Shown here piece after piece: positions 887 through 41,055 of a stretch of 64,000 nucleotides of DNA. Positions within the stretch are counted from its first letter, which is position 1, and the number at the start of each line of letters is the position of its first letter. This DNA comes from Patescibacteria group bacterium (lineage in GTDB: Bacteria > Patescibacteriota > Microgenomatia > Levybacterales > UBA12049). The position numbers were made by a program, and so were the translations under genes. The notes beneath the pieces were generated by a model, which did no database searches, was not told the origin of the DNA, and saw nothing but the letters and a program-made list of their open reading frames with translations. Location: contig DATICB010000001.1 in the NCBI GenBank assembly GCA_035457005.1, positions 3,246 through 67,245 on the forward strand. The letters are read 5' to 3'.

Positions 887-913
887 AATGTCATCCTGAA
901 CATAGCGAAGGAT
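887..913. repeat. hairpin-unit repeat, variant R3 (GTCATCCTGAacatAGCGAAGGATC)
   Basis: Directly abuts the tRNA-Cys 3' end. Same unit as 19400-19426, 34743-34770 (reverse complement) and 40575-40600. Confidence 0.6.
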
Positions 914-959
914 CTAATCAAAATCAATAGATTCTTCGTTCTTCATTGAAGAACTCAGA

Positions 960-1442
960 ATGACAAGCAGTGGAACTATTTTTATGGAAGGAAGATCACC
1001 AGAAATTTTGTCTCAGAAAACAGAAGCAACAGATCAGGGATTTAGTGAAAAAAGGGCTGCAAGAATTACCGAGGGAAAACAAGCAGATAATTCACAATTA
1101 TCCAAAAGAAAACATTTGCCCGAACCCAAACAAAAGCCTGTCAGGACAAGTAGAACCGATAACGGGCAAGTAAAGCCACTCAAAAGGGCTGCACGAGTAG
1201 AGCCGTCTCTTAAAGAAAAACTTCTTGCTGCCTATAGTGATAATGCAAAGGCAATAGGAGAGATGGCTACAAGCCTTACTGTTCTGTCAACATCTTCAGT
1301 TGAGGCAGCAGCAGAATTGATGACGGCAATGCGGACAAAACAAAAACTGCAGGAGCAGCTTCTTAATGCGTTGGAGGCAGAAAGTAAAGGTGAGTTGACA
1401 GAAGACACTCTTCCCAAAGAGCTACAAGATTTGATAAAATAG
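960..1442 (+). CDS. hypothetical protein (charged, low complexity)
   Basis: 160-aa ORF with no recognisable motif. Confidence 0.35.
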   Translation: MTSSGTIFMEGRSPEILSQKTEATDQGFSEKRAARITEGKQADNSQLSKRKHLPEPKQKPVRTSRTDNGQVKPLKRAARVEPSLKEKLLAAYSDNAKAIGEMATSLTVLSTSSVEAAAELMTAMRTKQKLQEQLLNALEAESKGELTEDTLPKELQDLIK

Positions 1443-1515
1443 GGTTTAGCAGTGCTTAGGGCATAGGGCAAAGAAAAAAATCTTAGCTCTTCGCGCTAAG
1501 CTCTTTGCATCAAAA

Positions 1516-1562
1516 GGGTAGCTAGTTCAGCGGCAGAACGGTCGCCTGAGGCGACAGGTGCA
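1516..1562 (+). pseudogene. 5' portion of tRNA-like gene X (acceptor 5' strand, D arm, 15-nt anticodon arm, variable region)
   Basis: GGGTAGC TA GTTC AGCGGCA GAAC G GTCGC CTGAG GCGAC AGGTG. The anticodon arm is 2 nt shorter than canonical (5-nt loop). The segment AGCGGnAGAACGGTCGCCTGAGGCGACAGGTGCA is repeated at 1886-1919. Confidence 0.55.
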
Positions 1563-1578
1563 ATAATATATAAACAGT

Positions 1579-1821
1579 ATGTTCTCTGTTTATGTATTGA
1601 AAAGCTTAGCAAACGGTAGGTTATACACAGGTTCTACAAATAATGTAGAAAGACGACTAAGAGAACATAATGCAGGACAAACAAAATATACACGATCAAC
1701 AAGGCCATTCGTGTTAATCTACCAAGAGGTCTATGACACAAAGGTAGAAGCAATTAGAAGAGAAAGATTTTTAAAAACAGGAAAAGGAAGGGAATTATTA
1801 AAACAGATTTTGGGCATTTAG
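1579..1821 (+). CDS. GIY-YIG nuclease family protein (YhbQ/UPF0213-like, 80 aa)
   Basis: VYVLKS..GRLYTGST.NVERRLREHN is a GIY-YIG core. The stop codon overlaps the first bases of tRNA-Ile. Confidence 0.75.
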   Translation: MFSVYVLKSLANGRLYTGSTNNVERRLREHNAGQTKYTRSTRPFVLIYQEVYDTKVEAIRRERFLKTGKGRELLKQILGI

Positions 1822-1886
1822 TTCAGCGGTAGAACGCTTCTCTGATAAAGAAGAGGTGGATGGTCCGACTCCATCAGTGCCCACCA
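1812..1886 (+). tRNA. tRNA-Ile(GAT)
   Basis: Acceptor GGGCATT/AGTGCCC (one G-U pair). D arm GTTC AGCGGTA GAAC. Anticodon stem CTTCT/AGAAG with loop CTGATAA. T arm GATGG TCCGACT CCATC. CCA encoded. Confidence 0.8.
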
Positions 1887-1942
1887 GCGGTAGAACGGTC
1901 GCCTGAGGCGACAGGTGCATGGTCCGACTCCATGGCTACCCA
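1886..1942 (+). pseudogene. 3' portion of tRNA-like gene X (D loop through acceptor 3' strand)
   Basis: AGCGGTAGAAC G GTCGC CTGAG GCGAC AGGTG CATGG TCCGACT CCATG GCTACCC A. The acceptor 3' strand pairs perfectly with GGGTAGC at 1516. No CCA encoded. Confidence 0.55.
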
Positions 1943-1950
1943 CAGGAAAA

Positions 1951-2190
1951 TTATAGTGATCCACTGCGAGAAATTCGCCTATCACAACCTTTACACTTAC
2001 GACTTCCTCCACGGGTAATGCCACCAGGAGTATCTAATCTATTAAGTTCACATGGTGCCTGTGAGTCACCTGACCCTGTTGCTGGATCGACAACAACACG
2101 ATCATAAATTCCTGTTTTTGGATTTCTTGTTGTGGTTGCTAGTCCTTGTTCTGGTGGCAATCCTCTTATTGGACAATCTGGTGTGGACAT
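1951..2190 (-). CDS. small Cys4 Pro/Gly-rich protein, paralog 1 of 3
   Basis: Shares ..DCPI.., S.D.SAPC and a C-terminal CxxC(D/R)R with the two neighbours. GC-richer than surrounding sequence. Confidence 0.55.
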   Translation of the reverse strand: MSTPDCPIRGLPPEQGLATTTRNPKTGIYDRVVVDPATGSGDSQAPCELNRLDTPGGITRGGSRKCKGCDRRISRSGSL

Positions 2191-2218
2191 AAAATAAGTA
2201 ACTTTAAAAATAAAAAAA

Positions 2219-2464
2219 TCAATTCCTTGGTCTTACTGATCTTCTGCATGCAGCACACTGTGGTGGTGTAGGTCCACCTCTTTGCATTTGCTCTATTGCG
2301 CAAGGTGCGCTTGGGTCTGGAGATGCATGTGGTGGTCTTGGTCCAAGAGTTGCTCGTTGTCCTCCTGCAGTCACGTCAAGTGTTCTATTATCTCCTGCTT
2401 GTGGTGCTGGACATTCGCTATAAGACATAGAAGGTATTATATGGTGGTAATTGAAAATTGGCAA
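2219..2464 (-). CDS. small Cys4 Pro/Gly-rich protein, paralog 2 of 3 (start may be the internal Met, MSYSEC)
   Basis: SPDPSAPC ... QCAACRRSVRPRN, paralogous to the neighbours. Confidence 0.5.
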   Translation of the reverse strand: MPIFNYHHIIPSMSYSECPAPQAGDNRTLDVTAGGQRATLGPRPPHASPDPSAPCAIEQMQRGGPTPPQCAACRRSVRPRN

Positions 2465-2476
2465 GAGGGAATTATG

Positions 2477-2728
2477 TTAGTTGGTATCAATTGGCATAGT
2501 TGTTGTCGTAATTTCTCTGTGGCAGCGACGACATGACGAAGATCTTGTTCCTGTGGGAGTATCTGCAGCTGGAATAGGAATCTCTGTTGCTCTGCAAGGA
2601 GCAGATAGATCTGGACTGCCAGATGGAGAAGTCCAACGAACTCTTGTTCGTTTTTGTGGTCCAACAATGTCTAATTGCCTTACGCCTAGTCTCTCAATCT
2701 GATCTATCCCACAGTCCTGTCTTGGCAT
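2477..2728 (-). CDS. small Cys4 Pro/Gly-rich protein, paralog 3 of 3
   Basis: MPRQDCGI ... SPDLSAPC ... SCRRCHRE, paralogous to the neighbours. Confidence 0.55.
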   Translation of the reverse strand: MPRQDCGIDQIERLGVRQLDIVGPQKRTRVRWTSPSGSPDLSAPCRATEIPIPAADTPTGTRSSSCRRCHREITTTTMPIDTN

Positions 2729-2735
2729 AGTGATT

Positions 2736-3098
2736 TTATTTTACTTCGTTAAATTTCCCATCCAAGAGGATGTAAAAAAGGTCAACTTTTAAATGTGGAT
2801 ATTTTGCCAAAATAGTTTTTTTGGCTTTTAGTAAATCTTCTGCATGGCGCTCAGGTGTAGATTCTGCACCATATGCACCACAATTTTCATGATGCATCAG
2901 GACAACTTGTTTAATGTCATGAAGTTTAACACAAAGATCTATTTGCTTCATGACTGTGTCAAGCTCTTTTGACCCGCCTGCATAGCCGACATAATCAAAT
3001 GTTTTGTCACCAAAATTGTCATCCAACCATTTTCTAATAAATTTTTGAAATCTAAAGTCAATGCAGCTAACGACCAATGCATCACATGTGTGTGCCAT
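2736..3098 (-). CDS. short beta-carbonic-anhydrase-like protein (120 aa)
   Basis: CxDxR (VVSCIDFRF) and HxxC (MHHENCGA) motifs with beta-CA-like spacing, but the protein is much shorter than a canonical beta-CA. Confidence 0.4.
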   Translation of the reverse strand: MAHTCDALVVSCIDFRFQKFIRKWLDDNFGDKTFDYVGYAGGSKELDTVMKQIDLCVKLHDIKQVVLMHHENCGAYGAESTPERHAEDLLKAKKTILAKYPHLKVDLFYILLDGKFNEVK

Positions 3099-3202
3099 AG
3101 GGAATTATTATACGCCTGATTTTTTTGTTTGACAAGAATTTTGTCAGGATTTGGTTTTGTACATTTCAAGCACTTGACAGGAAAACGTGAGAGTATGGTA
3201 GT

Positions 3203-3511
3203 ATGATGATACTCATGCAGGGGAGTCTCCACACAAGTACCAAAGAATGTCTACAAAAAGATTTCCAAACTGTTGCCCGTCAAGTTGCTCGTAAACGGAA
3301 AAGACCTGTATCTTATTTAGCTTTTGCAAAGCGTACCACACATGGGTACGCTTTTTTTGAATCTATCCAGGAAGAGGTATGGGACATGCTTCATAAAATT
3401 GCAAAAACAGTACACAGTCTTCATCCGGAATATGAATTTTCATTGGTTGCTGATGTCTGTTCGGATATGGCAAACAGCATTGATTTTTCTCCAATATCAT
3501 CAGAAATATAG
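3203..3511 (+). CDS. hypothetical protein
   Basis: 102-aa ORF preceded by TTGACA-17-TAGTAT; no recognisable motif. Confidence 0.25.
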   Translation: MMILMQGSLHTSTKECLQKDFQTVARQVARKRKRPVSYLAFAKRTTHGYAFFESIQEEVWDMLHKIAKTVHSLHPEYEFSLVADVCSDMANSIDFSPISSEI

Positions 3512-3529
3512 TCTTGCTATAATACTTCC

Positions 3530-4279
3530 ATGTTGGTCAAGGCATATAAAACAAGAAAAGTTGTGTCAGGAGACGACTTGTTTACTATTCTGAAAGAAAG
3601 TCTGCCGAAAGAATTGCCAGAAAAATCCATAGTGGCAATTTCATCGAAAATTATTGCACTGTGCGAAAGTAGGATTGCTAATCCTCAGGATATGGGCAGA
3701 GACGAATTAGCAGAAAAAGAAGCAGAGTATTATTTGCCTCGAGAAACAAATCCTTTTGGCGTTATGGTAACAATAAAAAATAATGTCATGGTTGCATCGG
3801 CAGGAATTGATCAATCGAATGCACATGGCATGTATGTTTTGTGGCCAGAAAATGTGCAGGCTTCTGCCAATAGCATCCGTCAGCAGATAGCAAAGAGCAA
3901 AGGGCTAAGAGATATAGGAGTGATTGTGACAGATAGTAGATTGTCGCCACTTCGATGGGGAGTAACTGGTGTTTGTTTGTCGCATAGCGGTTTTGAGGCA
4001 ATAAGAAGCTATATTGGCAAGCCCGATGTGTTTGGTAGACTACTTCAAGTAGAAACAGTCAATGATGCAGACAGCATTGCTGCGGCAGCAGTAAGTGTGA
4101 TGGGGGAAGGGTCCGAGCAAACACCACTCGCGATTGTTTCGGACATTCCTTATATTGTTTTTACCGACAAAAATCCAACTCCCAAAGAATCACTCGTCAG
4201 CATGATTGATATGAATCATGAGGTGTTTACGCCTCTTCTTACCGCAGCCCCTTGGAAAAAAGGAAAGGGAGGAAGATAA
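3530..4279 (+). CDS. CofE-like gamma-glutamyl ligase family protein (F420-0:gamma-glutamyl ligase homolog)
   Basis: ISSKIIALCESR, SAGIDQSN, GVIVTDSRLSPLRWG..G.CLSHSG and AAAAVSVMGEG match CofE signature blocks. Confidence 0.7.
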   Translation: MLVKAYKTRKVVSGDDLFTILKESLPKELPEKSIVAISSKIIALCESRIANPQDMGRDELAEKEAEYYLPRETNPFGVMVTIKNNVMVASAGIDQSNAHGMYVLWPENVQASANSIRQQIAKSKGLRDIGVIVTDSRLSPLRWGVTGVCLSHSGFEAIRSYIGKPDVFGRLLQVETVNDADSIAAAAVSVMGEGSEQTPLAIVSDIPYIVFTDKNPTPKESLVSMIDMNHEVFTPLLTAAPWKKGKGGR

Positions 4280-4288
4280 TCCTTTATT

Positions 4289-4894
4289 TTACTGGGCGGA
4301 GGGTGTGCCAACTGTGGGCGTTGTGGATGGTGTTATGGTTATTGTATAGTCTGTTGTTTTTTTCAAAACTGATTCTATAATTCTATCTGCAGTCACCGCT
4401 GTTTTGGGTAAAAAGCTTATGGTTGTTGTTCCGGAAAATGTTGGGCTAACAGTATAGAAAAGGAGTGCAACAGTGCCTGTTCCTTTTTTGCCGGGCAAAT
4501 CAATTTGCTCAGTGAGTGCGTAAGAAATTCTGCCGCCAATTGTATCGATTGTATTAATCAAAGGACTCGGCTGCTGAAAAAAATCGCCGGGAGTAATAGT
4601 GACATTGGTCAGTGCTTGCGGGTCGTAGGCAAACTCGAGTTGTACTGAGTTGACGACATTGTCACCAGTGTCTATATGGACAGCAAGCGTTTGTTGGGTA
4701 AGTTGGGACGAGCTAGACGCATTTGCTGGGGTAATAGTAAGAGTGGTATGTGCATTAACCGATACTGGGGTTGGTGTTGGTTGTTGCGCTGGTGTTTGTT
4801 TTTTCTGATAAGGCGTTGAGACAAGTGCAAGATACAAAAGACCACAGGTGAGAAGAAAGAGAAAAAGAATTAACGCGAGCGTTTTTTTACTCAT
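4289..4894 (-). CDS. signal-anchored cohesin-like domain protein
   Basis: N-terminal TM segment. VQLEFAYDPQALTNV resembles the cohesin YDP..L motif. Paralogous to 62321-63328. Confidence 0.55.
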   Translation of the reverse strand: MSKKTLALILFLFLLTCGLLYLALVSTPYQKKQTPAQQPTPTPVSVNAHTTLTITPANASSSSQLTQQTLAVHIDTGDNVVNSVQLEFAYDPQALTNVTITPGDFFQQPSPLINTIDTIGGRISYALTEQIDLPGKKGTGTVALLFYTVSPTFSGTTTISFLPKTAVTADRIIESVLKKTTDYTITITPSTTPTVGTPSAQ

Positions 4895-4942
4895 AGCTGA
4901 TCTTTCTAGACTACACTAGTTTGTCTTTTTTGACAAGCAAAA

Positions 4943-7251: not shown

Positions 7252-7330
7252 GTCATTGCGAGAAGTTCTTTTTAAGAACGACGCGGCAATCTCATACCAA
7301 AAAAGATTGCTTCACTACGTTCGCAATGAC
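7252..7330. repeat. R1 palindromic hairpin-pair element, intergenic copy
   Basis: Termini GTCATTGCGAG ... CGCAATGAC with inner GCAATC/GATTGC. Confidence 0.7.
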
Positions 7331-9366: not shown

Positions 9367-9420
9367 ATTCTCTTTGTGGTGTCTTGTCAAAAAATATATT
9401 TCGTGTTACTTTAAATCACA

Positions 9421-10472
9421 TGCCAACCTCTCAAAAACACGCTGAATATCAATATTTAGATCTTCTGAAAGAAGCACTCAAAGACGGGATTATTAAAATA
9501 GACCGAGGGACAGATATAAAACTTCATAGTTTGTTTGGTCGACAGACACGCTACGATTTATCGCAAGGATTTCCACTGCTCACAACAAAAAAAGTGTACT
9601 GGAAGGGAGTCATTCACGAGTTGTATTGGTTTATGTCAGGGCAAACAAATATTAAATATTTAGTTGATAATAACGTGCATATTTGGGACGACTATCCGTA
9701 CAAAATATATAAGACAAAAATGAGTCAGCATCATTCTGTCATTGCGAGCGAAGCGAAGCAATCTAATAAAAATAAGATTGCCGTGTCGTCTTCGACTCCT
9801 CGCAATGACATTATTTTAACAAAAGAAGAATTTATAGAAAAAATAAAGACAAATAATACGTTTGCCAAAAAATGGGGAAATCTGCCAAGAATTTATGGAG
9901 AAATGTGGCGCAAATGGCCTACCAAGACAGGCCGAACAATAGATCAGCTTGCATGGGTTTTACAGGAAATGAAAGAAGATCCTGATGCAAAAAACCTTAT
10001 TGTCACCTCGTGGAATCCAGAATATATGTATACCATGGCGACTTACGAAGACGCGAATAGGTTTCCAATTTGCCACAACATGTATCAAATCAGCAATCGC
10101 AATGGCTATTTGGACTTACAGCTGTATCAGCGCAGTGCAGATTTATTTTTAGGAGTGCCATTTAATATTGCGTCTTATGCGCTTTTGACTATGATTCTGG
10201 CAAAAATTGCAGGACTCAAGCCTGGTGTTTTTACCCATACATTTGGCGATGTGCATGTGTATGACGATCATGTCGCGGCAGTAAAAGAGCAATTAAAGAG
10301 AAAACCAAGACCATTCCCGAAAATTAAGTTTACTCATGATTTTAAAACGCTCGATGCGTTTCGACCAGAATACGTTGAATTAGTCAATTATGATCCATAC
10401 CCAACTATTAAAGCAGAATTGACTGTTGCAGGTGGACTTTTTGATAAAAAAACAGGGAAGATGGCAGGGTAA
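9421..10472 (+). CDS. thyA: thymidylate synthase ThyA with a ~50-aa small-domain insertion that contains an R1 repeat
   Basis: QYLDLL, IHELYWF, YGEMWRKW, LQLYQRSADLFLGVPFNIASYALL. An in-frame TTG at 9384 is also possible as the start. Confidence 0.85.
9738..9809. repeat. R1 element in frame inside thyA
   Basis: GTCATTGCGAGCGAAGCGAAGCAATC...GATTGCCGTGTCG...CTCGCAATGAC, translated VIASEAKQSNKNKIAVSSSTPRND. Confidence 0.75.
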
Positions 10473-11085: not shown

Positions 11086-11354
11086 GCTTAAGAAAAATTA
11101 GCGCCTTTTTGCAGGTGATGGTGTTGGTTGGTTTTCTTGTGGCGTTTGTCCACTCTGACGACCAAGATCTCTCATCTGATCCGCTGTTGTTGCAGCTTTT
11201 TCTCTTCGAGCACCACGTCTTTTTTGACGCCAAAACTCTAAAACAGCGGCAATTACGTTTGGTTGGGAAGTTTGTCTTTGCTTTTCCATAATGGCTGCAT
11301 TGTAGATCCATCATGTTTATTTGTCAAATACAGAAATGTGATATAACTAAAACA

Positions 11355-11963
11355 ATGAAAATTTCAGCAATTGCAATTATTTCTAAAAATCGGGGATTGG
11401 GATTTGAGAATCATCTTCTTTTCCATATTCCTGGTGAGCTCCCACGATTAAAAGCAATTACCATGGGCCATCCAGTTGTTATGGGAAGAAAAACGCATGA
11501 GTCAATTGGGAGAATTTTGCCAGGAAGACTCAACATTGTTATTACCAGAAAAGGTGGAGAGGATGTGCCGGGTTTGCTTATTTTTGTTGACAGTTTGGAA
11601 AAAGCATTGGAGATTGCAAAAGAGAGTGAGGGAAAAAAAGTCAAAAAGTCTTCTTCGAGCAAGCAAAGCGAGTCGAGAAGTGAGTTGTCGACAAGCTCGA
11701 ACAAGAATAAGATTGCCGCGTCGGTCGCCAAAGGCGAACCTCCTCGCAATGACAACGAAGGCGAAATCTTTATCTTAGGTGGGGGACAAATTTTTGCAGA
11801 AAGCCTGTCAATAACAGATCGTTTGTATTTGACAATTGTTGATACAGAAGTACCAGCAGATACTTTTTTTCCAGACTACGAAAAAGAATTTACAAAAGTT
11901 ATTACTGAGGAGAAGAAAACAGATTGGGAATACCCCTACACATTTCTTACTTTAGAAAAATAA
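11355..11963 (+). CDS. folA: dihydrofolate reductase with a ~45-aa insertion built from R2 plus an R1 half
   Basis: ISAIAIISKNRGLG..LPRLKAITMGHPVVMGRKTHESIG, IFILGGGQIF. Confidence 0.85.
   Translation: MKISAIAIISKNRGLGFENHLLFHIPGELPRLKAITMGHPVVMGRKTHESIGRILPGRLNIVITRKGGEDVPGLLIFVDSLEKALEIAKESEGKKVKKSSSSKQSESRSELSTSSNKNKIAASVAKGEPPRNDNEGEIFILGGGQIFAESLSITDRLYLTIVDTEVPADTFFPDYEKEFTKVITEEKKTDWEYPYTFLTLEK
11651..11686. repeat. R2 element (CTTCTTCGAGCAAGC.AAGCGAGTCGAGAAG) in frame in folA
   Basis: Also present in recR at 38804-38836; translated SSSSKQSESRSE. Confidence 0.6.
11705..11752. repeat. R1 3' half-element in frame in folA
   Basis: AATAAGATTGCCGCGTCG...CCTCGCAATGAC, translated NKNKIAASVAKGEPPRND. 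Confidence 0.65.
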
Positions 11964-17041: not shown

Positions 17042-19390
17042 ATGTATCAACGATTTGGAGAGAGTGCACTGCCGAGAGTGATTAATCATATTGTTTCTCC
17101 TGTTAAAATTCCACCAACGCTCCTTTTTGCGACACGAAATCAAAATAAACTGCGTGAATACCAAAGAATATTAAAAAAGCCTGTGGAAGGAATTGATTTA
17201 AAGGTGCCAGAAATTCAGGACAGCGATCCGCTCAAAGTTCTTTCTGAAAAAGCAAAAACAGCCTATGCAATTCATGGAGGACCAATTTTTGTTGAGGACA
17301 CAAGTTTTACGCTTCCAGAGTTGGACAACATGATTGGGCCGTATGCAGACAACGAAACAAGCTCGCGTGCCAAGCTTGCAGCAATTTGTCGCATGTTTGA
17401 CACAACGCATAAAAGGGAAGCGATTGTTGTAGTTGGTATTGCGCTTTTTGACGGACGCGAAGTGTATATGTGGGTAGGAAAAGTGTCTGGCACTGTTGCT
17501 GCCTCGCCGTTAGGCAGTAATGGATTTGGATTTGATGCAATTTTTATTCCAAAAGGAGCGAAAAAAACATTTGCCCAAATGACGGATAGTGAAAAAGATA
17601 GTTATAGTCCTCGAAAAAGTGCGCTTTTGGATTTAGTAAAAAACCCTCCAAGCTTAGCTGAGCCTATTTTCCAACTGCAAGAGCCGTCAGTATTTCAAAC
17701 AAATAGAATCAGAAAAGAAGAAATAGCAAAAAGAAACGCATTACAATTTGCCTTTAGCATGGAATCTTTGGAAAAAGCCCGTTCAGCAGGTTTAGCTCGA
17801 GCAACAAAACCAAATGTCAAATTGGAAGTAAGTACTTATGCGCCATTTACTGAGGTATTGCACTACAATGGCGCAGTAAGGGAATATACTGTTGATCCAA
17901 AATCTGCATCAATGGGACTTGTTCTTCTCACAGAAGTAGATTTAAAAACAGTGCCTGATAAAGGGAAAAAACGAGCTATAAGACTTGCAGTCAGTGACAC
18001 TGGCAATCCTCTTTTGTATCAAATGGGGCCAAAGGCGATGGAAATTGTCTTGGCTGCACGAGCAGCTGAGTATTTAGATATGCACTCAGCAGATATGCAC
18101 CAACACGTACGCGATTTGTTGTCTGGAAAAATACAGCATGTATCGCGAAGCAGTACCAGATCTTCTGTTTTGGAAGAAGTGTTGGGAATGTTTGTCAAAA
18201 CAGATGAGAAAGGCGTGCATAAAATTATTCATGGAGCAAGTACAGCAATTGCAACAAAAGAATTAGGATACAAAAGATTATCGAGCGGAGGTATTTTAAG
18301 CAGAAAACAAGCTGCAAAAGGACTTTTGATGAGAGGACCAGATGGCGTGGTTTCGAGTTTGTATTCATACGGCGGTATGCCGCCAACAACAGGGAGTCGC
18401 GACAGTATTGTGACAGCAGCAATGTCTTTTATGCGGGCATGGATTCCAAGAAACGGCGTGTTTGCAGGAAATTTTGCAAGACAACTCCAGCTTTTTAAAC
18501 AAGCAAAAAAAGCAATTATCGGCTTTGGTTTGCCAAAAGACATTGAAAAGCAGGTAATTTCCCAAATCGGGATTGCAGTTGGCTGTGACAATCCTGTTAG
18601 TATCGCCAGAGATGTGAAGAAATTTGCTCTGCTTGGCGGACATGCTGCAAGAATTTATACAACCAATCCAGATATACGAATTATTGAAACAGCAAAAGCA
18701 ATTCGAAAAGCAACGGGCCCGAATTTTCTTTTGTGTGTTGGGCCGGTGACTGATTACGAGCAGGCTGTTCGTCTAAAAAAAGAAGCACAGGTACACATGT
18801 TTTTAGTAGGTCATGGTGGAGGAGAAAATTGTACGTCCCTTACTGCAGGCGGTGCAGCAAATTCAATAGAACTTCTGTATCAACTCTACCTAGATCCACT
18901 GTTTAATGACTGCATTATTGGTTTGGAAGGTGGGACTGGGACAACCATTGGTGCGCTGCTACCACTTTTGGATGTTATTTCTTTGAATAAACGTGGTATC
19001 GGCGGATTCGAAAGCACACAGGGATTGTATGCATTAAAAGCGCGCAACGGCAAAGAAGAGCCAGTTATTCCGTATCATGGATCAGCCAGTGCTGCAACGC
19101 AGTTGATTGAAGCATACATGAGCCCAGAGATTGCAAAAAAAAGATTGGGGCCAGATGGTATTGTGCGGGCAGTTGAGGGAAAAGTAAATTACATTGTGCT
19201 CAATGACGCAGTGAGGAGTAATGTAAGCGCAATCCGGGAAAATAGAGCCATTGCAGGACTAGCGTTAGCTGATCAGCAGTCTTTGTCTATATATCAACTG
19301 CGCGAAAGAGTGAAAAAGTTAGGACATAATCATGTGGGTATTTCTGCTGCATCAAGTGTTGTCGCTAACGAACACAGGAGTGGGGTATAA
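17042..19390 (+). CDS. fusion protein: N-terminal non-canonical purine NTP pyrophosphatase (RdgB/Ham1 ITPase) and C-terminal IMPDH/GMP-reductase-like TIM-barrel domain
   Basis: ATRNQNKLREY, FVEDTSF and GFGFDAIFIPKGAKKTFAQM..SPRKSA are Ham1 motifs. VGPVTDYEQAVRL...VGHGGGENCTSLTAGG...GLEGGTGTTIGALL resembles the IMPDH catalytic-Cys loop and phosphate-binding region. Confidence 0.6.
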   Translation: MYQRFGESALPRVINHIVSPVKIPPTLLFATRNQNKLREYQRILKKPVEGIDLKVPEIQDSDPLKVLSEKAKTAYAIHGGPIFVEDTSFTLPELDNMIGPYADNETSSRAKLAAICRMFDTTHKREAIVVVGIALFDGREVYMWVGKVSGTVAASPLGSNGFGFDAIFIPKGAKKTFAQMTDSEKDSYSPRKSALLDLVKNPPSLAEPIFQLQEPSVFQTNRIRKEEIAKRNALQFAFSMESLEKARSAGLARATKPNVKLEVSTYAPFTEVLHYNGAVREYTVDPKSASMGLVLLTEVDLKTVPDKGKKRAIRLAVSDTGNPLLYQMGPKAMEIVLAARAAEYLDMHSADMHQHVRDLLSGKIQHVSRSSTRSSVLEEVLGMFVKTDEKGVHKIIHGASTAIATKELGYKRLSSGGILSRKQAAKGLLMRGPDGVVSSLYSYGGMPPTTGSRDSIVTAAMSFMRAWIPRNGVFAGNFARQLQLFKQAKKAIIGFGLPKDIEKQVISQIGIAVGCDNPVSIARDVKKFALLGGHAARIYTTNPDIRIIETAKAIRKATGPNFLLCVGPVTDYEQAVRLKKEAQVHMFLVGHGGGENCTSLTAGGAANSIELLYQLYLDPLFNDCIIGLEGGTGTTIGALLPLLDVISLNKRGIGGFESTQGLYALKARNGKEEPVIPYHGSASAATQLIEAYMSPEIAKKRLGPDGIVRAVEGKVNYIVLNDAVRSNVSAIRENRAIAGLALADQQSLSIYQLRERVKKLGHNHVGISAASSVVANEHRSGV

Positions 19391-19399
19391 AGTTGTTGA

Positions 19400-19426
19400 T
19401 GTCGTCCTGAGCAAAGCGAAAGGATC
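19400..19426. repeat. R3 hairpin-unit repeat (GTCGTCCTGAGCAAAGCGAAAGGATC)
   Basis: Intergenic, upstream of glyA. Confidence 0.55.
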
Positions 19427-29020: not shown

Positions 29021-29093
29021 GTCACGGTTGGATAGCTCTTTGAGCATTCAACGTGACCCTGTTAGATGCGAAGCTATCTAACAGGGGAGGTGA
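29021..29093 (+). promoter_or_regulatory. conserved bipartite 5' leader (hairpin A, hairpin B, GGGGAGGTG SD), copy 1
   Basis: A is GTCACG-GTTGGATAG..CATTCAA-CGTGAC. B is CTGTTAGAT-GCGAAGC-TATCTAACAG. Then GGGGAGGTGAAAAAATATG. Confidence 0.55.
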
Positions 29094-29099
29094 AAAAAT

Positions 29100-29469: not shown

Positions 29470-30444
29470 ATGCTAATTGGTTTTCTCGGACTTGGGAAAA
29501 TGGGTGGCCGAATGGTGAGTAAATTATTGCAAGGCGGACACGATGTTGTGGCGTGGAATAGGTCGATAGACGTTTCAGAAGAATTTGTCAAACAATATGC
29601 TTTGAGCAAAGCGACCAGCCTGCCGGCGCGGCAGGGAAGTTCCCACATTCGTTCGAATAATATCTCCCTTGTTAAAAATATTTCTGATTTTGTTTTATTA
29701 AAAAATAAACCTCATGTTTTTTGGTCAATGGTTCAATATGGAGAACCGACCAAACAGGTTCTTTTGCAACTTCTTACTACTGCAGAAAAAGGTGATGTGG
29801 TTATTGATGGGGCAAATTCTTTTTACTTGGATACACAAAAACAGTACGAAGCATTTACTAAAAAAGGGATTCACTTTTTGGGAATTGGTGTAAGCGGGGG
29901 AATTCTGGCACCAGTCAATGGATTTCCTCTCATGGCAGGGGGATCAGAGACAGGATATAAAAAAATCCAACCAATTCTTGATACACTCAGTAAACCACAT
30001 GGAGGTCATGCGTATTTTGGGAAAGGCGGAGTTGGACATTTTATTAAAATGGTTCACAACGGCGTGGAGTACGGGATGATGCAAGCAATTGGTGAGGGAT
30101 TTGGTGTTTTGGAAAAGGGACCGTATTTGTTGGATTTGGAAAAAGTTGCAGATCTTTGGACAAAAGAGACAATTGTTTCTGGGTTCCTCATGGATTGCGC
30201 AAGAGATGCATTGGTAAAAGATCCACAACTTGCCAAGACGGCAGGATTTATAGAAGAAAATGGGGAAGCAAAATGGACAATTGCATTGGCAAAAAAGCTA
30301 CGGGTTCCAATTGAGATTATTGAAGCTTCATTACAATTTAGACAAAAATCACAAAAAAGTTTGATTATCCAAAAGTCATTTGCTGCAAAAATGGTTGCCG
30401 CCCTCAGACACGAATTTGGTGGACATAAGACAAAGGAGAAATAA
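29470..30444 (+). CDS. gnd: 6-phosphogluconate dehydrogenase (decarboxylating), short form, with an insertion after the Rossmann fold
   Basis: GFLGLGKMGGRM, HFIKMVHNGVEYGMMQAIGEG. Confidence 0.75.
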   Translation: MLIGFLGLGKMGGRMVSKLLQGGHDVVAWNRSIDVSEEFVKQYALSKATSLPARQGSSHIRSNNISLVKNISDFVLLKNKPHVFWSMVQYGEPTKQVLLQLLTTAEKGDVVIDGANSFYLDTQKQYEAFTKKGIHFLGIGVSGGILAPVNGFPLMAGGSETGYKKIQPILDTLSKPHGGHAYFGKGGVGHFIKMVHNGVEYGMMQAIGEGFGVLEKGPYLLDLEKVADLWTKETIVSGFLMDCARDALVKDPQLAKTAGFIEENGEAKWTIALAKKLRVPIEIIEASLQFRQKSQKSLIIQKSFAAKMVAALRHEFGGHKTKEK

Positions 30445-34288: not shown

Positions 34289-34363
34289 GTCATCGCGAGT
34301 TTGCCTGCTGGCAACGTGGCGATCTTTAAAAGATTGCTTCGTCACTACGTTCCTCGCAATGAC
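34289..34363. repeat. R1 element, intergenic copy filling the gap between DHH and HIT
   Basis: GTCATCGCGAG...GATTGCTTCGTCACTACGTTCCTCGCAATGAC. Confidence 0.7.
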
Positions 34364-34742: not shown

Positions 34743-34770
34743 GATCCTTCGTTTCACTCAGGATGACATG
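34743..34770. repeat. R3 hairpin-unit repeat, reverse orientation
   Basis: CAGGATCCTTCGTTTCACTCAGGATGAC. Confidence 0.55.
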
Positions 34771-34826: not shown

Positions 34827-34848
34827 TAACCACGCTACATAACAAAGG

Positions 34849-34925: not shown

Positions 34926-34937
34926 TTTATTTAATTT

Positions 34938-35138: not shown

Positions 35139-35524
35139 TGAATGATGTAAGCGTTTTGTTATTTGTCGAAAGCAGATACAAAGTTAACCGCCGTCGCATA
35201 CGAAGAGCTGTTGAAAAAGTGTTGTATGATCAGCATGTTGCAGGCCCCGTAGAGGTAAGTATTGCGATTATTGGCGACCGCAAAATGCGCGAATTATCCA
35301 AAAAATACAAAGGCGAGGATAAAACGCGAAACATTCTGAGTTTTTCTTTGGCAGAGGGGAGTCCAACAGTATTGCCAACAGATAAACTCCGCCTTGGCGA
35401 TATTGTTATTTCGTATCCATATCTTATTAAAGAAGCAGCGCAATTTGATGAATTGGTCGACGATCGCATGGACATGCTTGTTAGCCATGGTATGTTGCAT
35501 CTTTTGGGCGTTCACCACGAATAG
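35138..35524 (+). CDS. ybeY: endoribonuclease YbeY
   Basis: HGMLHLLGVHHE metal-binding motif. Confidence 0.8.
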   Translation: MNDVSVLLFVESRYKVNRRRIRRAVEKVLYDQHVAGPVEVSIAIIGDRKMRELSKKYKGEDKTRNILSFSLAEGSPTVLPTDKLRLGDIVISYPYLIKEAAQFDELVDDRMDMLVSHGMLHLLGVHHE

Positions 35525-35584
35525 AAAAGACAGAGTTTGTTCCATTTCCAATTGTGTGCTTTTGTAGTATTCTAGGAAAGCTTT

Positions 35585-37072: not shown

Positions 37073-37089
37073 CAATGCATTTAGTGATT

Positions 37090-37161
37090 GCTACAGTTAG
37101 ATAGTCCTTTGGACATCTAGCGTAGCCCCGTTAGATGCAAAGCTATCTAACGGGGGAGGTG
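37090..37161 (+). promoter_or_regulatory. conserved bipartite 5' leader, copy 3 (upstream of ybaB)
   Basis: A is GCTAC-AGTTAGATAG..CATCTAGC-GTAGC. B is CCGTTAGAT-GCAAAGC-TATCTAACGG. Then GGGGGAGGTGAA. Confidence 0.55.
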
Positions 37162-37172
37162 AATTACTGATT

Positions 37173-37457
37173 ATGTTTAATCCATTTCAACAATTAGGAG
37201 ATTTAAAGAAAATGCGCGACCAGGCAATGCAAATTCAAAAAGCGCTGCAAGCCGAGCAAATTACTGTAGAAAAATCAGGTGTTACTGTTGTTATGACAGG
37301 AGATCAGAAAGTTGTTTCTATTTCGAGTAACGGAAGATCGGACAATGACATTAAAGATTGTCTAAATGAAGCAATTAAAAAATCTCAAGAAATAGCAGCA
37401 AAAAAATTAGCACAAATGGGTGGCGGTTTGGGTGGGCTTATGGGAGGAGGCAATTAA
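37173..37457 (+). CDS. ybaB: nucleoid-associated protein YbaB/EbfC
   Basis: Length and pattern (central beta region, Gly-rich tail) fit YbaB; position between dnaX and recR. Confidence 0.7.
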   Translation: MFNPFQQLGDLKKMRDQAMQIQKALQAEQITVEKSGVTVVMTGDQKVVSISSNGRSDNDIKDCLNEAIKKSQEIAAKKLAQMGGGLGGLMGGGN

Positions 37458-37463
37458 GCGAAA

Positions 37464-38399
37464 ATGAAGATTTTTTCAGGAAGTGCAAGTCGAGCGTTGA
37501 CAGAGGAAGTAGTGAAAGTCATGAATATTCCACTGTCTTTAATTGATGTGCATGTTTTCCCAGATGGAGAAAGGCGAATCCGCATTCACGACAAAGTGGT
37601 TGGGAAATCAACAGCTGTTATTCAGACAGCATCAACTCCAGTAGACACCAACTACATGGAGCTTTTTTTTATTGTTGATGCACTCAAGCGGTCTGGTGCA
37701 GAATTTGTGACTGCAGTCATTCCATATTTTGGGTATCAGAGACAAGATCACGTTTTTCGCGATGGAGAGGCTGTTTCTTTGGAAGTCGTTATTCACATTT
37801 TAGAAAGTTTAAAAGTAGATAGAATGGTGAGTTTGGACATGCATTCTAGTCGAATTCCTGATTTATTTAGTATTCCTGTTGGGCATTTATCTGCATTACC
37901 TCTTTTTGCCGAAGAAATTAGAAAACATAAATGGAATAATACCGACACTGTTTTAGTATCTCCAGACACAGGAGGCATTGGCAGAATTAAAAAATTATCA
38001 ACACTTCTAGAGGACATGCCGTATGCTGTTTTGGAAAAAGTTAGAGATTTATCATCTGGTGCAATCTCTATTGCAGATATCGAAGAAGGGTCCTTGCGTG
38101 GGAAAAAACGTGCAATTTTGGTTGATGACATGATTTCCTCTGGTGGAACGATTATTATGGGCGCGTCTTTGTTGGCAGCACAGGGAATAGAGGAGATTTA
38201 CGTTTTTGCGACACATCCTGTTTTTTCACATGACGCGCCGGACAGGCTGCAAAATTCTGCAATTAAAAAAGTGTATGTAACCGACACAGTTGCTGTTGCG
38301 CAAGATAAGCAATTTTCTAAATTAGAAGTATTGTCTGTAGGTACGTTGATTGCAAACGAACTCAAACATCCAACCGCATCTAACGATCCATTGTTGTAA
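37464..38399 (+). CDS. prs: ribose-phosphate pyrophosphokinase
   Basis: FSGSAS, FPDGE, VSPDTGGIGR, ILVDDMISSGGT. Confidence 0.85.
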   Translation: MKIFSGSASRALTEEVVKVMNIPLSLIDVHVFPDGERRIRIHDKVVGKSTAVIQTASTPVDTNYMELFFIVDALKRSGAEFVTAVIPYFGYQRQDHVFRDGEAVSLEVVIHILESLKVDRMVSLDMHSSRIPDLFSIPVGHLSALPLFAEEIRKHKWNNTDTVLVSPDTGGIGRIKKLSTLLEDMPYAVLEKVRDLSSGAISIADIEEGSLRGKKRAILVDDMISSGGTIIMGASLLAAQGIEEIYVFATHPVFSHDAPDRLQNSAIKKVYVTDTVAVAQDKQFSKLEVLSVGTLIANELKHPTASNDPLL

Positions 38400-38405
38400 T
38401 AGCCT

Positions 38406-39077
38406 ATGAAAATTCCACGAGCAGTACAAAATCTTATTGAGTCGTTTGAAAAACTGCCTGGCGTTGGGCCAAAGTCTGCTCAGCGGCTTACGTTTTATTT
38501 ACTGCATGTCCCACAAGGCGAATTGGATACCTTTGCAAAAAGCCTAACAGAGCTAAAAACAGGCACCAAATTGTGCTCTATTTGCATGTCAATTGACGAA
38601 ACAGACCCATGCTCAATTTGCTCGGATGGCCTTCGGGATCACGCAACAATTTGTGTTGTCGAGCAGCCTTTGGATGTCTTGGCTTTGGAAAAATCAGGAA
38701 CCTATAAAGGAATCTATCACGTGCTACACGGGAGAATTGATCCACTCAATAATTTGGGGCCAGATGAGATTTATGTGGGGAAGTTATTCGACAGGATAAA
38801 AAATTCTTCTTCGAGCAAGCCTAGCGAATCGAGAAGTCTTGAGGAAAGTTCTCGACTTCGCTCGAACGAGAACACTCATATTAAAGAAATAATTCTAGCT
38901 ACCAATCCTACCATGGAAGGCGAGGCAACAGCAATGTATATTACCAAACAATTAAAAGCATTAGGTTTTGCTGGTGCTATAACAAGAATTGGAAGAGGTT
39001 TGCCGGTTGGTGCGGATTTGGAATATGCAGACGAAATTACTTTGCAGCGCGCTATGGAAGGCAGAAGCGAAGTATAA
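38406..39077 (+). CDS. recR: recombination protein RecR with an in-frame R2-derived insertion
   Basis: LPGVGPKSAQRL, C-x2-C...C-x2-C zinc finger, Toprim region. Confidence 0.85.
   Translation: MKIPRAVQNLIESFEKLPGVGPKSAQRLTFYLLHVPQGELDTFAKSLTELKTGTKLCSICMSIDETDPCSICSDGLRDHATICVVEQPLDVLALEKSGTYKGIYHVLHGRIDPLNNLGPDEIYVGKLFDRIKNSSSSKPSESRSLEESSRLRSNENTHIKEIILATNPTMEGEATAMYITKQLKALGFAGAITRIGRGLPVGADLEYADEITLQRAMEGRSEV
38804..38875. repeat. R2 element plus palindromic extension, in frame in recR
   Basis: TTCTTCTTCGAGCAAGCCTAGCGAATCGAGAAG..., translated NSSSSKPSESRSLEESSRLRS. Confidence 0.6.
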
Positions 39078-39138
39078 CTGCTCAAAATTTTCCTCCGTAA
39101 AAAGCATAATGCTAATTTTCAGATTAACTTGATCTACT

Positions 39139-39525
39139 TTGGAGTATTTTGTTCTATTGATAGAAAAACAATTTTTTCGTAACATGCTTGTTATGAGTCT
39201 ATTTGGTGGACAACAAGATCCAAATGCAAAAAGAAGAGCACAGCGAAGAGCTGGAGTAAAAGCTGCTTTAGAAGCAGAGCGCTCGCGAGTAAGAGCAGCT
39301 GATGAATTAGCAACGCAGCATGCTGATGAAGCACAAAGAAATCTTTGGGCAGGTCTTATGCTGGAAGGTGTACGTGCTGGCATACCAGTAGGAAGACAGC
39401 AACAAGAAGAAATTACAGCAGCAGAAAGAAGAGGTGCGGAAGGGACATTGGGTGCAATGGAAAGAATGAGAGTTGGTAGTAATGGTAACGGGCAAAATGG
39501 ACAAAATGGACATCACGAGCGTTAA
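39139..39525 (+). CDS. hypothetical Arg/Gln/Glu-rich protein ending in a NGQNG tail
   Basis: GC-richer ORF, compositionally similar to 39739-40224. Confidence 0.4.
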   Translation: MEYFVLLIEKQFFRNMLVMSLFGGQQDPNAKRRAQRRAGVKAALEAERSRVRAADELATQHADEAQRNLWAGLMLEGVRAGIPVGRQQQEEITAAERRGAEGTLGAMERMRVGSNGNGQNGQNGHHER

Positions 39526-39551
39526 TTGTACAATGGTGTATTTTTTCAATT

Positions 39552-39572
39552 CTCCCGTAAGGGAGTTTTTTA
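39552..39572 (+). terminator. rho-independent terminator CTCCC-GTAA-GGGAG plus T-run
   Basis: Perfect 5-bp GC-rich stem followed by 6 T. Confidence 0.6.
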
Positions 39573-39738
39573 TTGGTTTTACTCTTTTGGGTAAAAGACA
39601 TATTACCGGTCTAACATATTTTATTCTTTATTTTATAGAGATGTTCTTTTGTATGGAAAAACGGAAAATTTACTAGGCCGAAATAACTTCTTTATAGGAC
39701 TATTTTAAGTATTGACAAAATAGGTAAGATAGATTAAA

Positions 39739-40224
39739 ATGTGTTTTACTATGAGCGAAACATTTGGTCAAAATGGAAGATCCTCAGTAAGAGTTGTTGC
39801 ATCCGGACTACCACGTCAGAGTCATGATATAGTGGTTACGCCTTCAACAATAGGAATTTCAGAAGAAACTGCAGAAGTATTACGACAACAGGGCGAACAA
39901 AGATTAGCCGATCGATTAGCAGAGCAGAGGAGACAAGAAGAAGTAGAGAGGCAGCATGCAGAAGAAATAAAAGGACTACAAGCACAGGTAGCAGATCTTC
40001 AGAGATGGCCAGATGCGCATGCACTAGCACGACAAATGGAAGCAAACAGCGGCGCGCGTCAAACTGATCCAACTGATTCTATTTCCACCTGGCATTTAGA
40101 ACACGATAAAGGTCTAGAGACTGCAAGAGAGCATGGTCTGAGAAGAGTACCCAGTGCTGATGCAACAAAAGGCAATGGAAATGGAGATGGTAATGGGAGA
40201 AGAAGATGGTTGAGAAGAAAATAA
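39739..40224 (+). CDS. hypothetical Arg/Gln/Glu-rich protein ending in a NGNGDGNG tail
   Basis: Similar composition, tail and terminator to 39139-39525. Confidence 0.4.
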   Translation: MCFTMSETFGQNGRSSVRVVASGLPRQSHDIVVTPSTIGISEETAEVLRQQGEQRLADRLAEQRRQEEVERQHAEEIKGLQAQVADLQRWPDAHALARQMEANSGARQTDPTDSISTWHLEHDKGLETAREHGLRRVPSADATKGNGNGDGNGRRRWLRRK

Positions 40225-40250
40225 AACATAAATTGTTGAGATCGATAATG

Positions 40251-40272
40251 CTCCCAATAGGGAGTTTTTTTA
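40251..40272 (+). terminator. rho-independent terminator CTCCC-AATA-GGGAG plus T-run
   Basis: Same architecture as the terminator at 39552-39572. Confidence 0.6.
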
Positions 40273-40377
40273 TGGCTCTGCAAAGCAGAATATTAGAACA
40301 CGCTTTGGTAAAAGATAATTCTTAATATGTTTCGCATGATTCTGGACAAGGCAGAATGACAAAGGTACAATACTTCA

Positions 40378-41055
40378 ATGAGAATCGGTGTGTTTGGCGG
40401 CAGATTTGATCCAATTCACAATGGTCACTTGGCTGTTGCGAAAGAAGTTTTGAAAATGGGTAAAGCAGACGAAGTGTGGTTAAGTATAGAAAATCAGCAC
40501 CAGTGGCGGCCAATTATTGCAGCAGCTAATGATAGAAAAAAAATGGCAGAATTGGCAATAGATTCAATTACAGATGTCATCCTGAGCAATGCGAAGGATA
40601 TATATTCTTCGGCTATGTCTCAGAATGACAAAAATAAGATTGCCGTGTCGCCTGAGGCTCCTCGCAATGACATCCAAAATAATTTTAAAGTAGATATGAC
40701 GCCGGTTGAGCTGGGTGGGACAACAGAAACAATACAAGTCGTTAGGCAGTTGCGAAAAAAATATCCAGAGCATGAATTTATTTTCATTGTTGGGTCGGAT
40801 CAATTGCCAACATTTCATAAATGGTCACACTGGGAAGATTTAAAAAAAGAAGTGCAATTTTTAATTGTTACCAGAAAGGGCTCGCCTTTGGATAATATTC
40901 CTAAAAATGCTTCTGTTATTACCGATCCAACATACGAACCACTCGATGACAGCGCGACGCGAATACGGGAATTTCTGCATGTTGGTACATCTATCTCTGG
41001 CCTTGTCCCAAAAGCAGTGGAGGAGTATATTAAAGAGCACAAGCTGTACCAGTGA
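40378..41055 (+). CDS. nadD: nicotinate-nucleotide adenylyltransferase with an in-frame R3 unit and R1 half-element insertion
   Basis: GVFGGRFDPIHNGHL. Confidence 0.85.
   Translation: MRIGVFGGRFDPIHNGHLAVAKEVLKMGKADEVWLSIENQHQWRPIIAAANDRKKMAELAIDSITDVILSNAKDIYSSAMSQNDKNKIAVSPEAPRNDIQNNFKVDMTPVELGGTTETIQVVRQLRKKYPEHEFIFIVGSDQLPTFHKWSHWEDLKKEVQFLIVTRKGSPLDNIPKNASVITDPTYEPLDDSATRIREFLHVGTSISGLVPKAVEEYIKEHKLYQ
40575..40671. repeat. R3 unit (40575-40600) plus R1 3' half (40631-40671), in frame in nadD
   Basis: GTCATCCTGAGCAATGCGAAGGAT ... AAAATAAGATTGCCGTGTCG...CTCGCAATGAC, translated VILSNAKDI...DKNKIAVSPEAPRND. Confidence 0.7.

Follow-up and report, generated by a model that had tools for sequence, protein, structure and literature searches.

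Tagged hairpin repeats inserted in enzyme genes of a Patescibacteria genome and their probable link to small Ssn-like GIY-YIG nucleases

CGTC-tagged repetitive extragenic palindromes (REPs) were defined by Di Nocera, De Gregorio and Rocco in 2013 (BMC Genomics 14:522; PMC3733652). They consist of an unpaired CGTC, often TGTC and with CCTC also allowed, a stem that almost always starts with A-T/T-A and a short tail, and they mostly form head-to-head dimers, heterodimers included. In the families CGTC-1 to CGTC-4, the stem is uninterrupted and 8-9 bp long, the loop has 4-5 nt and the tail is CCA. Units also lie in frame in genes, where they encode the peptides VIPAKAGI and VIAGLDPAIH...ARVKPAHD. 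They have no dedicated transposase, and no RAYT was found flanked by CGTC units. The described families come from 5 phyla, mostly from alpha-proteobacteria, and were equated with Neisseria dRS3 and with Rickettsia (R. conorii) RPE-4 and RPE-6 (PMC3733652). Here we analyze a family of hairpins, R1 and R3, in a 64,000-nt stretch of a Patescibacteria group bacterium (contig DATICB010000001.1, assembly GCA_035457005.1), referred to below as the window.

A second system concerns a nuclease. Chenal et al. (Nat Commun 16:2388, 2025; PMC11893778) described SsnA, a 94-aa single-domain GIY-YIG nuclease that binds and cuts the Neisseria NTS CGTCATTCCCGCGMAVGCGGGAATCYRG. SsnA acts on single-stranded DNA (ssDNA) only, and not on double-stranded DNA, RNA or the reverse strand. 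Cleavage requires three bases upstream of the palindrome, and the base most important for binding is the C right after it. The ssn genes are typically flanked by their own motifs (42% reported for SRMs), and the role demonstrated for Ssn in Neisseria is restriction of transforming ssDNA (PMC11893778). Our results suggest that R1 and R3 are probably units of a tagged ssDNA hairpin repeat family that is linked to an Ssn-like GIY-YIG nuclease. Judged by sequence, the family belongs to the CGTC/TGTC-tagged REP superfamily, which includes Neisseria dRS3/NTS and Rickettsia RPE-4/RPE-6.

The window has a G+C content of 39.6%, and the best matches of its ThyA and GIY-YIG proteins are named Patescibacteria, Microgenomates, Daviesbacteria or Levybacteria. 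It contains 17 hairpins of the form GTCAT-N3-GA...N3'-AT, while 200 dinucleotide-preserving shuffles of the window gave a mean of 0.42 and a maximum of 2. About 20 half-units were counted, laid out as (T/C)GTC, AT-NNN, an interior starting with GA(G/A), N'N'N'-AT and usually C. The unit consensus is 5'-(T/C)GTC, AT-NNN, GA-[interior]-GA(A), N'N'N'-AT, C-3'. The stem is ATTGC/GCAAT in 12 units, ATCCT/AGGAT in three with one further GTCCT, ATTCT/AGAAT in two, and ATCGC/GCGAT and ATCCC(GC) in one each. It starts with A-T/T-A in every unit except the one at 19401, which has G.T. The tag is TGTC in nine and CGTC in one of the 10 units displayed with their flank. The 3' tail mostly begins with C and reads CTT, CTA or CTC, and A replaces this C in two units (40576 and 40629). 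Almost every unit forms one half of a head-to-head dimer, 72-123 bp long, whose tags face outward. Tags lie 8 times on the plus and 11 times on the minus strand, which is no bias, and these counts cannot address replication. Dimer orientation relative to genes is not fixed either.

The interiors fall into two classes. The short class has 11-13 nt and reads GA-[G/A][C/T]-NNN-[G/A][C/T]-GA(A), with a GNA loop in five of the nine short units of the window, about half being non-GNA or mismatched. The long class has about 15-29 nt and typically reads GAG-GA-[variable hairpin]-GAC-(A/G)CG. An earlier note on this DNA had described R1 and R3 as one hairpin family with a constant 12-nt loop. Its R1 half-unit GTC-ATTGC-GAGCGAAGCGAA-GCAAT-C is present at 9738-9763, and its four R3 units are found at 890-914(+), 19401-19426(+), 34743-34767(-) and 40576-40600(+), 1-3 nt away from where it placed them. 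The constant loop does not hold. GAGCAAWGCGAA is matched by two of the four R3 units, GAACATAGCGA and GAGTGAAACGA take its place in the other two, the loop has 11 nt in three of the four, and the GAGCGAAGCG type occurs in 3 of the 12 units with the ATTGC stem, the other nine having variable interiors of 12-29 nt. What is conserved, and defines the family in place of the loop, is the GTC tag, the AT stem start, the GA/GA internal-loop bases and the 3' C.

The earlier note had also proposed that the stems change in a fully compensatory way and that this be checked in a larger sample. We therefore scanned one genome per species with the pattern GTCATNNNGAGCNNNGCGAN{3,4}ATC, which sets no condition on the stem triplets or the triloop. 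AT...AT and the 3' C were fixed in the scan patterns, so these positions give no independent evidence. The scan yielded at least 120 loci, and 153 copies were counted among the matches listed. Complementarity was kept: the stem triplets pair in 126 of these copies (82%), compared with 1.6% by chance, and at least 11 triplet types occur. T precedes GTC in 64% of the copies and C in 31%. The copies span more than 15 phyla, with hosts that include Nitrospirota, Alpha-, Gamma- and Delta-proteobacteria, Bacteroidota, Chloroflexota, Acidobacteriota, Planctomycetota, Verrucomicrobiota, Omnitrophota, Clostridia, Saccharibacteria and Gracilibacteria, among others. At non-selected sites of the scanned loci, 89 of 204 were paired, against one in a reversed-triplet control. 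A viral replicate (IMG/VR, L205-L324, at least 120 contigs) gave 134 complementary copies among the 149 listed (90%); a GIY-YIG relative is encoded on only one of these listed contigs.

We then aligned 61 distinct 25-nt units to the structure ...(((((..((...))..))))). In this alignment, 95.8% of the cells are paired, compared with 84.1% after shuffling, and 63 cells carry double changes, compared with 18.7; none of 500 shuffles reached either value. The covariation score is 0.414 against 0.178, and sliding the partner by 1-3 columns leaves 16-50% paired. Compensatory changes occur at all five variable pairs. The two inner pairs covary from GC/GC to AC/GT and GT/AC, and the inner pair changes from GC to AU in 7 distinct sequences. 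R1 and R3 are thus one hairpin family in the larger sample, and the compensatory stem changes argue for selection or generation at the level of a nucleic-acid hairpin rather than of a peptide, as the earlier note had held. Its statement that the changes are fully compensatory needs one correction, the G.T pair of the 19401 unit (GTCCT/AGGAT).

Dimers show which hairpin is conserved. Among 88 tag-defined dimers, 36 have halves with different stem triplets, and both local stems are perfect in 19 of the 36. Conservation is thus seen in the hairpin of each half-unit and not in the long one between the halves, which energy minimization favors. Head-to-head dimers number 57 against 8 tail-to-tail, with 19 heterodimers. 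A clustered array of seven tandem units with an exact spacing of 105 nt occurs on a Bacteroidaceae contig (L036, 3563-4217).

The short-class interior can be written as GC-GNA-GC with a C-G closing pair, which matches the Hirao-type d(GCGNAGC) mini-hairpin in sequence. In GC-NNN-GC, G-N-A fills the unconstrained triloop in 130 of the 153 listed genomic copies (85%) and in 120 of the 149 listed viral copies (81%), and a GNA triloop closed by C-G is the arrangement of this ultra-stable DNA mini-hairpin. The oligonucleotide d(GCGAAGC) melts at 76.5 C and r(GCGAAAGC) at only 39 C (PMC13037366), and GCGNAGC tolerates any N (PMC13037366; PMC3201870). The preference for GNA with a C-G closure therefore points to a DNA-level structure, and the cap, as read from the letters, supports such a structure for the short class only. 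The mini-hairpin core proposed earlier is borne out in the triloops and in the covarying inner pairs, and it applies to one of the two interior classes. The GCGAAGC heptamer as such is not enriched, with 7 occurrences in the window against 5.06 expected. Natural examples of d(GCGNAGC) are phage replication origins and N4 promoters (PMC13037366), whereas here it caps a genomic repeat.

The long class has a different interior. GAC plus 2-3 nt stands at its end in 40 of 72 cases, compared with 3.7 expected, and G follows GAC in 37 of the 40. The complementary strand therefore reads CGTC-[inner hairpin]-TCC. Most long-class units thereby contain another tagged hairpin, nested and pointing the opposite way.

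Enzyme genes carry four composite elements as in-frame inserts, namely thyA, folA, a nadD-like gene and nadE. In thyA (open reading frame (ORF) 9384-10472), a 72-bp head-to-head dimer at 9738-9809 encodes VIASEAKQSNKNKIAVSSSTPRND and consists of a short R1 half at 9738-9763(+) and a long half at 9776-9809(-). In nadE (ORF 41180-42007), another 72-bp head-to-head dimer at 41483-41554 encodes VIANEAKQSDTNDEIAASQAPRND, with a short half at 41483-41508(+) and a long half at 41524-41554(-). The nadD-like gene (ORF 40378-41055) carries 96 bp with three half-units at 40576-40671, encoding VILSNAKDIYSSAMSQNDKNKIAVSPEAPRND: 40576-40600(+) with an ATCCT stem, 40603-40629(-) with ATTCT, and 40638-40671(-), a long one with ATTGC. 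The folA insert (ORF 11313-11963) occupies 11643-11753 and encodes a peptide ...NKNKIAASVAKGEPPRND that ends ...PPRND; its right part (11711-11753, minus strand) is a long-class ATTGC half-unit, and its left part (11643-11700) is another kind of palindrome, translated as SSSSKQSESRS. The inserted peptides are of the VIA...PRND type.

The insert is missing from close ThyA homologues, and other ThyA homologues have related inserts at that site. In L326, thyA carries another dimer at the site used in the window, with the short and long classes arranged differently. The syntenic loci L121 and L122 have an uninterrupted thyA, L121 also has an insert-free folA (DHFR of 169 aa), and no units occur across 38 kb of L121-L123. 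The enzyme insertions are therefore lineage-specific. The empty sites of L121 and L122 are too diverged at the DNA level to fix insertion junctions or target duplications.

Two further kinds of insert were seen in these and neighboring genes. A palindrome in frame at recR 38799-38875 and folA 11643-11700 encodes SSSSK(Q/P)SESRS...; its stem, TTCT(T)CGA/TCGAGAA, encloses the loop GAGCAAGC-NNN-GCGA. The recR copy breaks into the RecR Toprim domain. This palindrome may be a diverged relative of the family without the GTCAT tag. ThyA has a second insertion hot spot (alignment columns 195-214; about 10550-10640 in L326) with a different repeat type, which encodes peptides such as ...SARSGQA and STGSTSSPQAISGQGQK.

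To link the hairpins with an enzyme, we carried out a reverse test on 80 metagenomic loci chosen only for a relative of a ~96-aa GIY-YIG gene. A GTC-AT...AT-C hairpin lies within 250 nt of this gene in 69 of the 80 loci. Close to the gene there are 5.27 units per kb, compared with 0.37 per kb at greater distance, a 14-fold difference. The units near GIY-YIG genes have the ATTGC stem in 168 of 201 cases, T (108) or C (85) before GTC, and mainly outward-facing tags; their interiors GAGCGCAGCGAA, GAGCGAAGCGAA and GAGGAGCGAAGCGACGAA correspond to the R1 unit of the window. In the opposite direction, a small GIY-YIG gene lies within 100 nt of the hairpins in 5 of 120 listed motif-selected loci (L085, the Gracilibacteria locus L064, L068, L028 and L095), mostly flanked on both sides. 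The contig L325, from the candidate phyla radiation (CPR) and syntenic with the window (dCD-dNK-thyA-folA-glyA), carries a gene of the ~96-aa type at 9556-9912(-), between two R1 hairpins and 90 bp upstream of thyA. Its product starts with MLNKQYYIYILANK, and in the L325 thyA an ATTGC+ATCGC dimer occupies the site that is also hit in the window. NCBIfam has no named family for either the ~96-aa type or the 80-aa type described next.

The window itself has a single GIY-YIG gene, an 80-aa single-domain gene at 1579-1821 on the plus strand (PF01541, E 7e-18). It was considered as the cognate nuclease and rejected. The gene is not flanked by R1/R3 units, the nearest lying 615 nt away, and its relatives stand in the same setting in L121-L124, which have few or no units. 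The cognate enzyme, if it exists in this genome, lies outside the window. The 80-aa gene sits between a tRNA-like 5' part (1516-1562) and a 3' part (1887-1943). Direct repeats of 35 nt around it (1528-1562 and 1885-1919) carry the hairpin GTCGCC-TGA-GGCGAC, with 6 bp and 3 nt, which replaces the normal anticodon arm of the tRNA-like sequence. A 12-mer of this hairpin, GTCGCCTGAGGC, is also the inner hairpin of unit 40638-40671. The last codons of the gene overlap the start of tRNA-Ile, and such overlaps also occur at tRNA-Ile in L121-L123 (L121 5700-6065) and at tRNA-Val in L124 (10001-10360). This cassette looks like one that targets or duplicates tRNA genes.

Several observations weigh against the link to an Ssn-like nuclease or against a stable DNA hairpin. 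Neither the ~96-aa GIY-YIG gene nor a remnant of it was found in the window. The 80-aa protein shares 34% identity with the ~96-aa type and belongs to a different subfamily, nearest to UPF0213, and its relatives occur in genomes without units. Pfam assigns PF01541, and both types have UPF0213 proteins as their closest PDB matches, with E 2.5e-8 for the window protein and 6.5e-5 for that of L325; membership of either type in cd10448 (Ssn proper) is thus only putative. The published SRM pattern, HGTCWYN(0-2)YYVSBRHN(0-5)WNVSBRGN(0-2)RNCYNB, matches the window once, at 42864-42892(-), and none of the R1/R3 units; the match is a canonical NTS/SRM-type unit, TGTCATCCCGCACTTGATGCGGGATCTAG, with a 7-bp stem and a 7-nt loop. 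The R1/R3 units likewise do not fit the uninterrupted 8-9-bp stems and 4-5-nt loops of the four CGTC-REP families: their stem has 5 bp, and beyond a GA/GA(A) internal loop comes either a GNA-capped mini-hairpin with 2 bp and a 3-nt loop or a nested hairpin. Among the four R3 units, three carry a triloop other than GNA (AAA, AAT and ATA). Nearest-neighbor DNA folding gives single short units -1.4 to -2.9 kcal/mol with z near 0, and dimers favor one long hairpin. Finally, the literature contains no demonstration that Ssn nucleases mobilize repeats.

We propose the following mechanistic model. The unit would fold as a hairpin in ssDNA during replication, repair or DNA uptake. A small Ssn-type GIY-YIG nuclease may recognize the hairpin through its GTC tag, stem and 3' C. 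The nuclease gene, flanked by the same hairpins, would resemble an insertion sequence, and nicking beside a hairpin would presumably drive the copying or recombination of units. Copies may persist within genes because the dimer is open and its product hydrophilic in the frame GTC ATT ... AAT GAC (V-I-A...R-N-D), and because it lands in tolerant loops.

It is tempting to go one step further. The GNA-capped, GTC-tagged hairpin and the ~96-aa GIY-YIG gene might form a distinct pan-bacterial mobile element, present on viral contigs too, in which the nuclease acts as a transposase, a GIY-YIG counterpart of RAYT/REPIN. We regard this as a speculative extension that is possible, though doubtful. In such an element, the nested opposite-strand CGTC hairpins would record the insertion of units into the loops of other units. 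Surface loops of essential CPR enzymes would have been rewritten repeatedly, for example at the thyA site shared by the window, L325 and L326.

The intergenic units bear on a possible role in RNA. A head-to-head dimer at 890-964 starts 4 nt past tRNA-Cys (811-886), confirming that an R3 unit stands beside this tRNA. Its halves, GTC-ATCCT-GAACATAGCGA-AGGAT-C at 890-914(+) and GTC-ATTCT-GAGTTCTTCAATGAAGAACGA-AGAAT-C at 930-964(-), have different stems, each perfectly self-complementary. The solo R3 unit GTC-GTCCT-GAGCAAAGCGAA-AGGAT-C at 19401-19426(+), with its one G.T pair, lies 11 nt past the stop of ORF 17042-19390. A 75-bp heterodimer at 34289-34363 separates a DHH-family gene from a HIT gene and joins, head to head, 34289-34324(+), with ATCGC/GCGAT, and 34332-34363(-), with ATTGC/GCAAT. 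The second solo R3 unit, GTC-ATCCT-GAGTGAAACGA-AGGAT-C at 34743-34767(-), has a compensatorily changed inner pair (GT...AC). Directly past the nadE ORF (end 42007) follows a 123-bp head-to-head dimer at 42009-42131, with a long half at 42009-42040(+) and a short half at 42106-42131(-) whose interior is GAGCGAAGCGTG. A 79-bp head-to-head dimer at 7252-7330 has ATTGC/GCAAT stems in both its long half, 7252-7291(+), and its short half, 7305-7330(-), with interior GAACGTAGTGAA.

Thus 5 of 6 intergenic copies (890, 19401, 34289, 34743 and 42009) follow a gene or tRNA at a distance of no more than about 50 nt, as would be expected if the hairpins were mainly RNA elements, such as terminators, stabilizers of mRNA 3' ends or processing sites. 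Di Nocera et al. reported the same downstream bias for REPs and argued for an RNA function (PMC3733652). The dimers also fold strongly as RNA (-27 to -34 kcal/mol, z -4.4 to -7.9), and the one G.T pair of the 19401 unit is compatible with G.U. However, this downstream position may merely reflect tolerated insertion. No T-run follows the units, the dimers take no fixed orientation to genes, and coding sequence contains four or five of the copies. Single mismatches in the stems, 7 G.T and 9 A.C, are not skewed toward G.U, the C-G-closed GNA triloop is a DNA-specific stability motif, and SsnA does not bind the RNA form (PMC11893778). We therefore consider a primary role in RNA unlikely.

The dimer architecture recalls classical REPINs mobilized by a RAYT, that is, an IS200/IS605-type Y1 transposase. 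Both join two inverted units through a short spacer, begin with a conserved tetranucleotide and lack target-site duplications; at the window dimers the flanks read T...A without a repeat. However, the tag is (T/C)GTC and not GTAG, the hairpin-flanked gene encodes a GIY-YIG protein, and Di Nocera et al. found no RAYT flanked by CGTC units (PMC3733652). Pfam scans of about 20 selected ORFs, which do not cover the window exhaustively, gave no Y1_Tnp match. Mobilization by a RAYT is therefore highly unlikely.

The inverted termini of the dimers, at least 11 bp long (GTCATTGCGAG...CTCGCAATGAC), and the dimer size would also fit miniature inverted-repeat transposable elements, deletion derivatives of a DDE-transposase insertion sequence that move via their terminal inverted repeats. 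This origin is hardly credible: target-site duplications are absent, it is local stems, and not matching termini, that are kept in solo units and heterodimers, the unit is spread over more than 15 phyla, and a related insertion sequence is absent from the window. That the VIA...PRND peptide is the conserved module and DNA palindromy secondary can be dismissed almost entirely. All four intragenic inserts and the thyA inserts of L325 and L326 do share one frame, but one alternative frame contains stop codons and another would give a basic, hydrophobic product, which accounts for the bias. Moreover, identical units are intergenic and on both strands, stem changes are compensatory at the nucleotide level, and insert-free close homologues work.

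Some neighboring features are separate from the family or touch it only at the edges. The ATGAC end of a unit provides the first ATG of a downstream ORF twice, for the 160-aa ORF 960-1442 and for cysS (42887-44287). ORF 960-1442, of unknown function, lies in a stretch absent from relatives; in L121, tRNA-Cys and the GIY-YIG gene are 175 bp apart. Rfam detected two tRNAs only in the window, and a 71-nt leader repeat at 29024-29094 and 37093-37163 had no match. Its copies precede an unknown 107-aa ORF and a ybaB/ebfC-like gene, are 80% identical and each form two hairpins, in which four pairs differ between the copies in a compensatory way. GC-GAA-GC or GC-AAA-GC caps the second of these hairpins, and the repeat ends in GGAGGTGAA (ribosome-binding site). 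A similar piece occurs at L326 1840-1878(-).

The earlier note had drawn this leader into the family through the GCGAAGC at 29068-29074. The cap is there, but it is untagged, reads GCAAAGC in the second copy and belongs to the separate two-hairpin element, so we rejected it as a member. A degenerate R3 loop proposed in gnd was rejected as well: the 11-mer at 29604 has neither the GTC tag nor a complementary stem, and by chance alone the loop pattern should be matched 1.2 times when one mismatch is allowed. The 11-mer lies inside an extra segment of gnd (29596-29660), about 20 residues (SKATSLPARQGSSHIRSNN) in the NAD-binding domain that the Pfam profile lacks. The DNA of this segment contains the palindrome CCTGCCG-GCG-CGGCAGG and may be another type of inserted repeat. 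The earlier account had passed over the head-to-head dimers, the in-frame enzyme insertions, and the published class with its cognate nuclease family.

If R1 and R3 are tagged ssDNA hairpins linked to an Ssn-like nuclease, a very common and rarely named bacterial repeat can be assigned to a published class and to a candidate enzyme. Many "hypothetical" peptides, among them VIASEAKQS and ...PRND, stem from this repeat. Published search patterns miss this large and widespread type of hairpin. In-frame "selfish DNA in genes", known from Rickettsia, is extended to the reduced genomes of Patescibacteria, and we found no description in CPR/Patescibacteria in the literature on REPIN/RAYT or palindromic elements; a full-text literature match for GTCATTGCGAG returned primer sequences only. 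The repeat would further offer a natural genomic setting for the d(GCGNAGC) mini-hairpin, in which sequence versus shape reading by Ssn-type nucleases could be probed, and new ssDNA-cutting specificities may follow.

Compared with the known systems, the window units share with CGTC-REPs the tag, the A-T/T-A stem start, head-to-head dimers, heterodimers, in-frame V-I-x...x-(N/H)-D peptides and the lack of an associated RAYT. The tail, which starts with C in most window units, is CT(T/A/C) there and CCA in CGTC-REPs, and the hosts differ, with the window unit in Patescibacteria and its type in more than 15 phyla and viral contigs, against 5 phyla for CGTC-REPs. The novel traits are the two-tier stem, the GNA cap, the nested tags, the CPR host and the escape from the published pattern. 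With NTS/SRM, the units share GTC 5' of the palindrome, AT...AT and the 3' C, and the small GIY-YIG gene is flanked on both sides in 52 of the 80 loci (65%), compared with 42% for SRMs.

REPIN/RAYT systems (Bertels and Rainey 2011) are similar in having two inverted REP hairpins with a spacer, non-autonomous and in multiple copies, and in the link to a single-copy nuclease or transposase gene flanked by repeats. REPINs have a GTAG tag and a Y1 (HUH) transposase, whereas here a GTC tag goes with a GIY-YIG gene. Ogata and colleagues are said to have described, in 2000, Rickettsia palindromic elements (RPE-1 type) inserted in protein-coding genes. The likeness to RPE-1 lies in palindromic repeats that interrupt housekeeping genes of a bacterium with a small genome, keep the reading frame and lengthen the protein by 20-30 residues where this is tolerated. 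RPE-1 is 100-150 bp long and unrelated in sequence, whereas the inserts reported here are dimers of 25-43-nt tagged hairpins.

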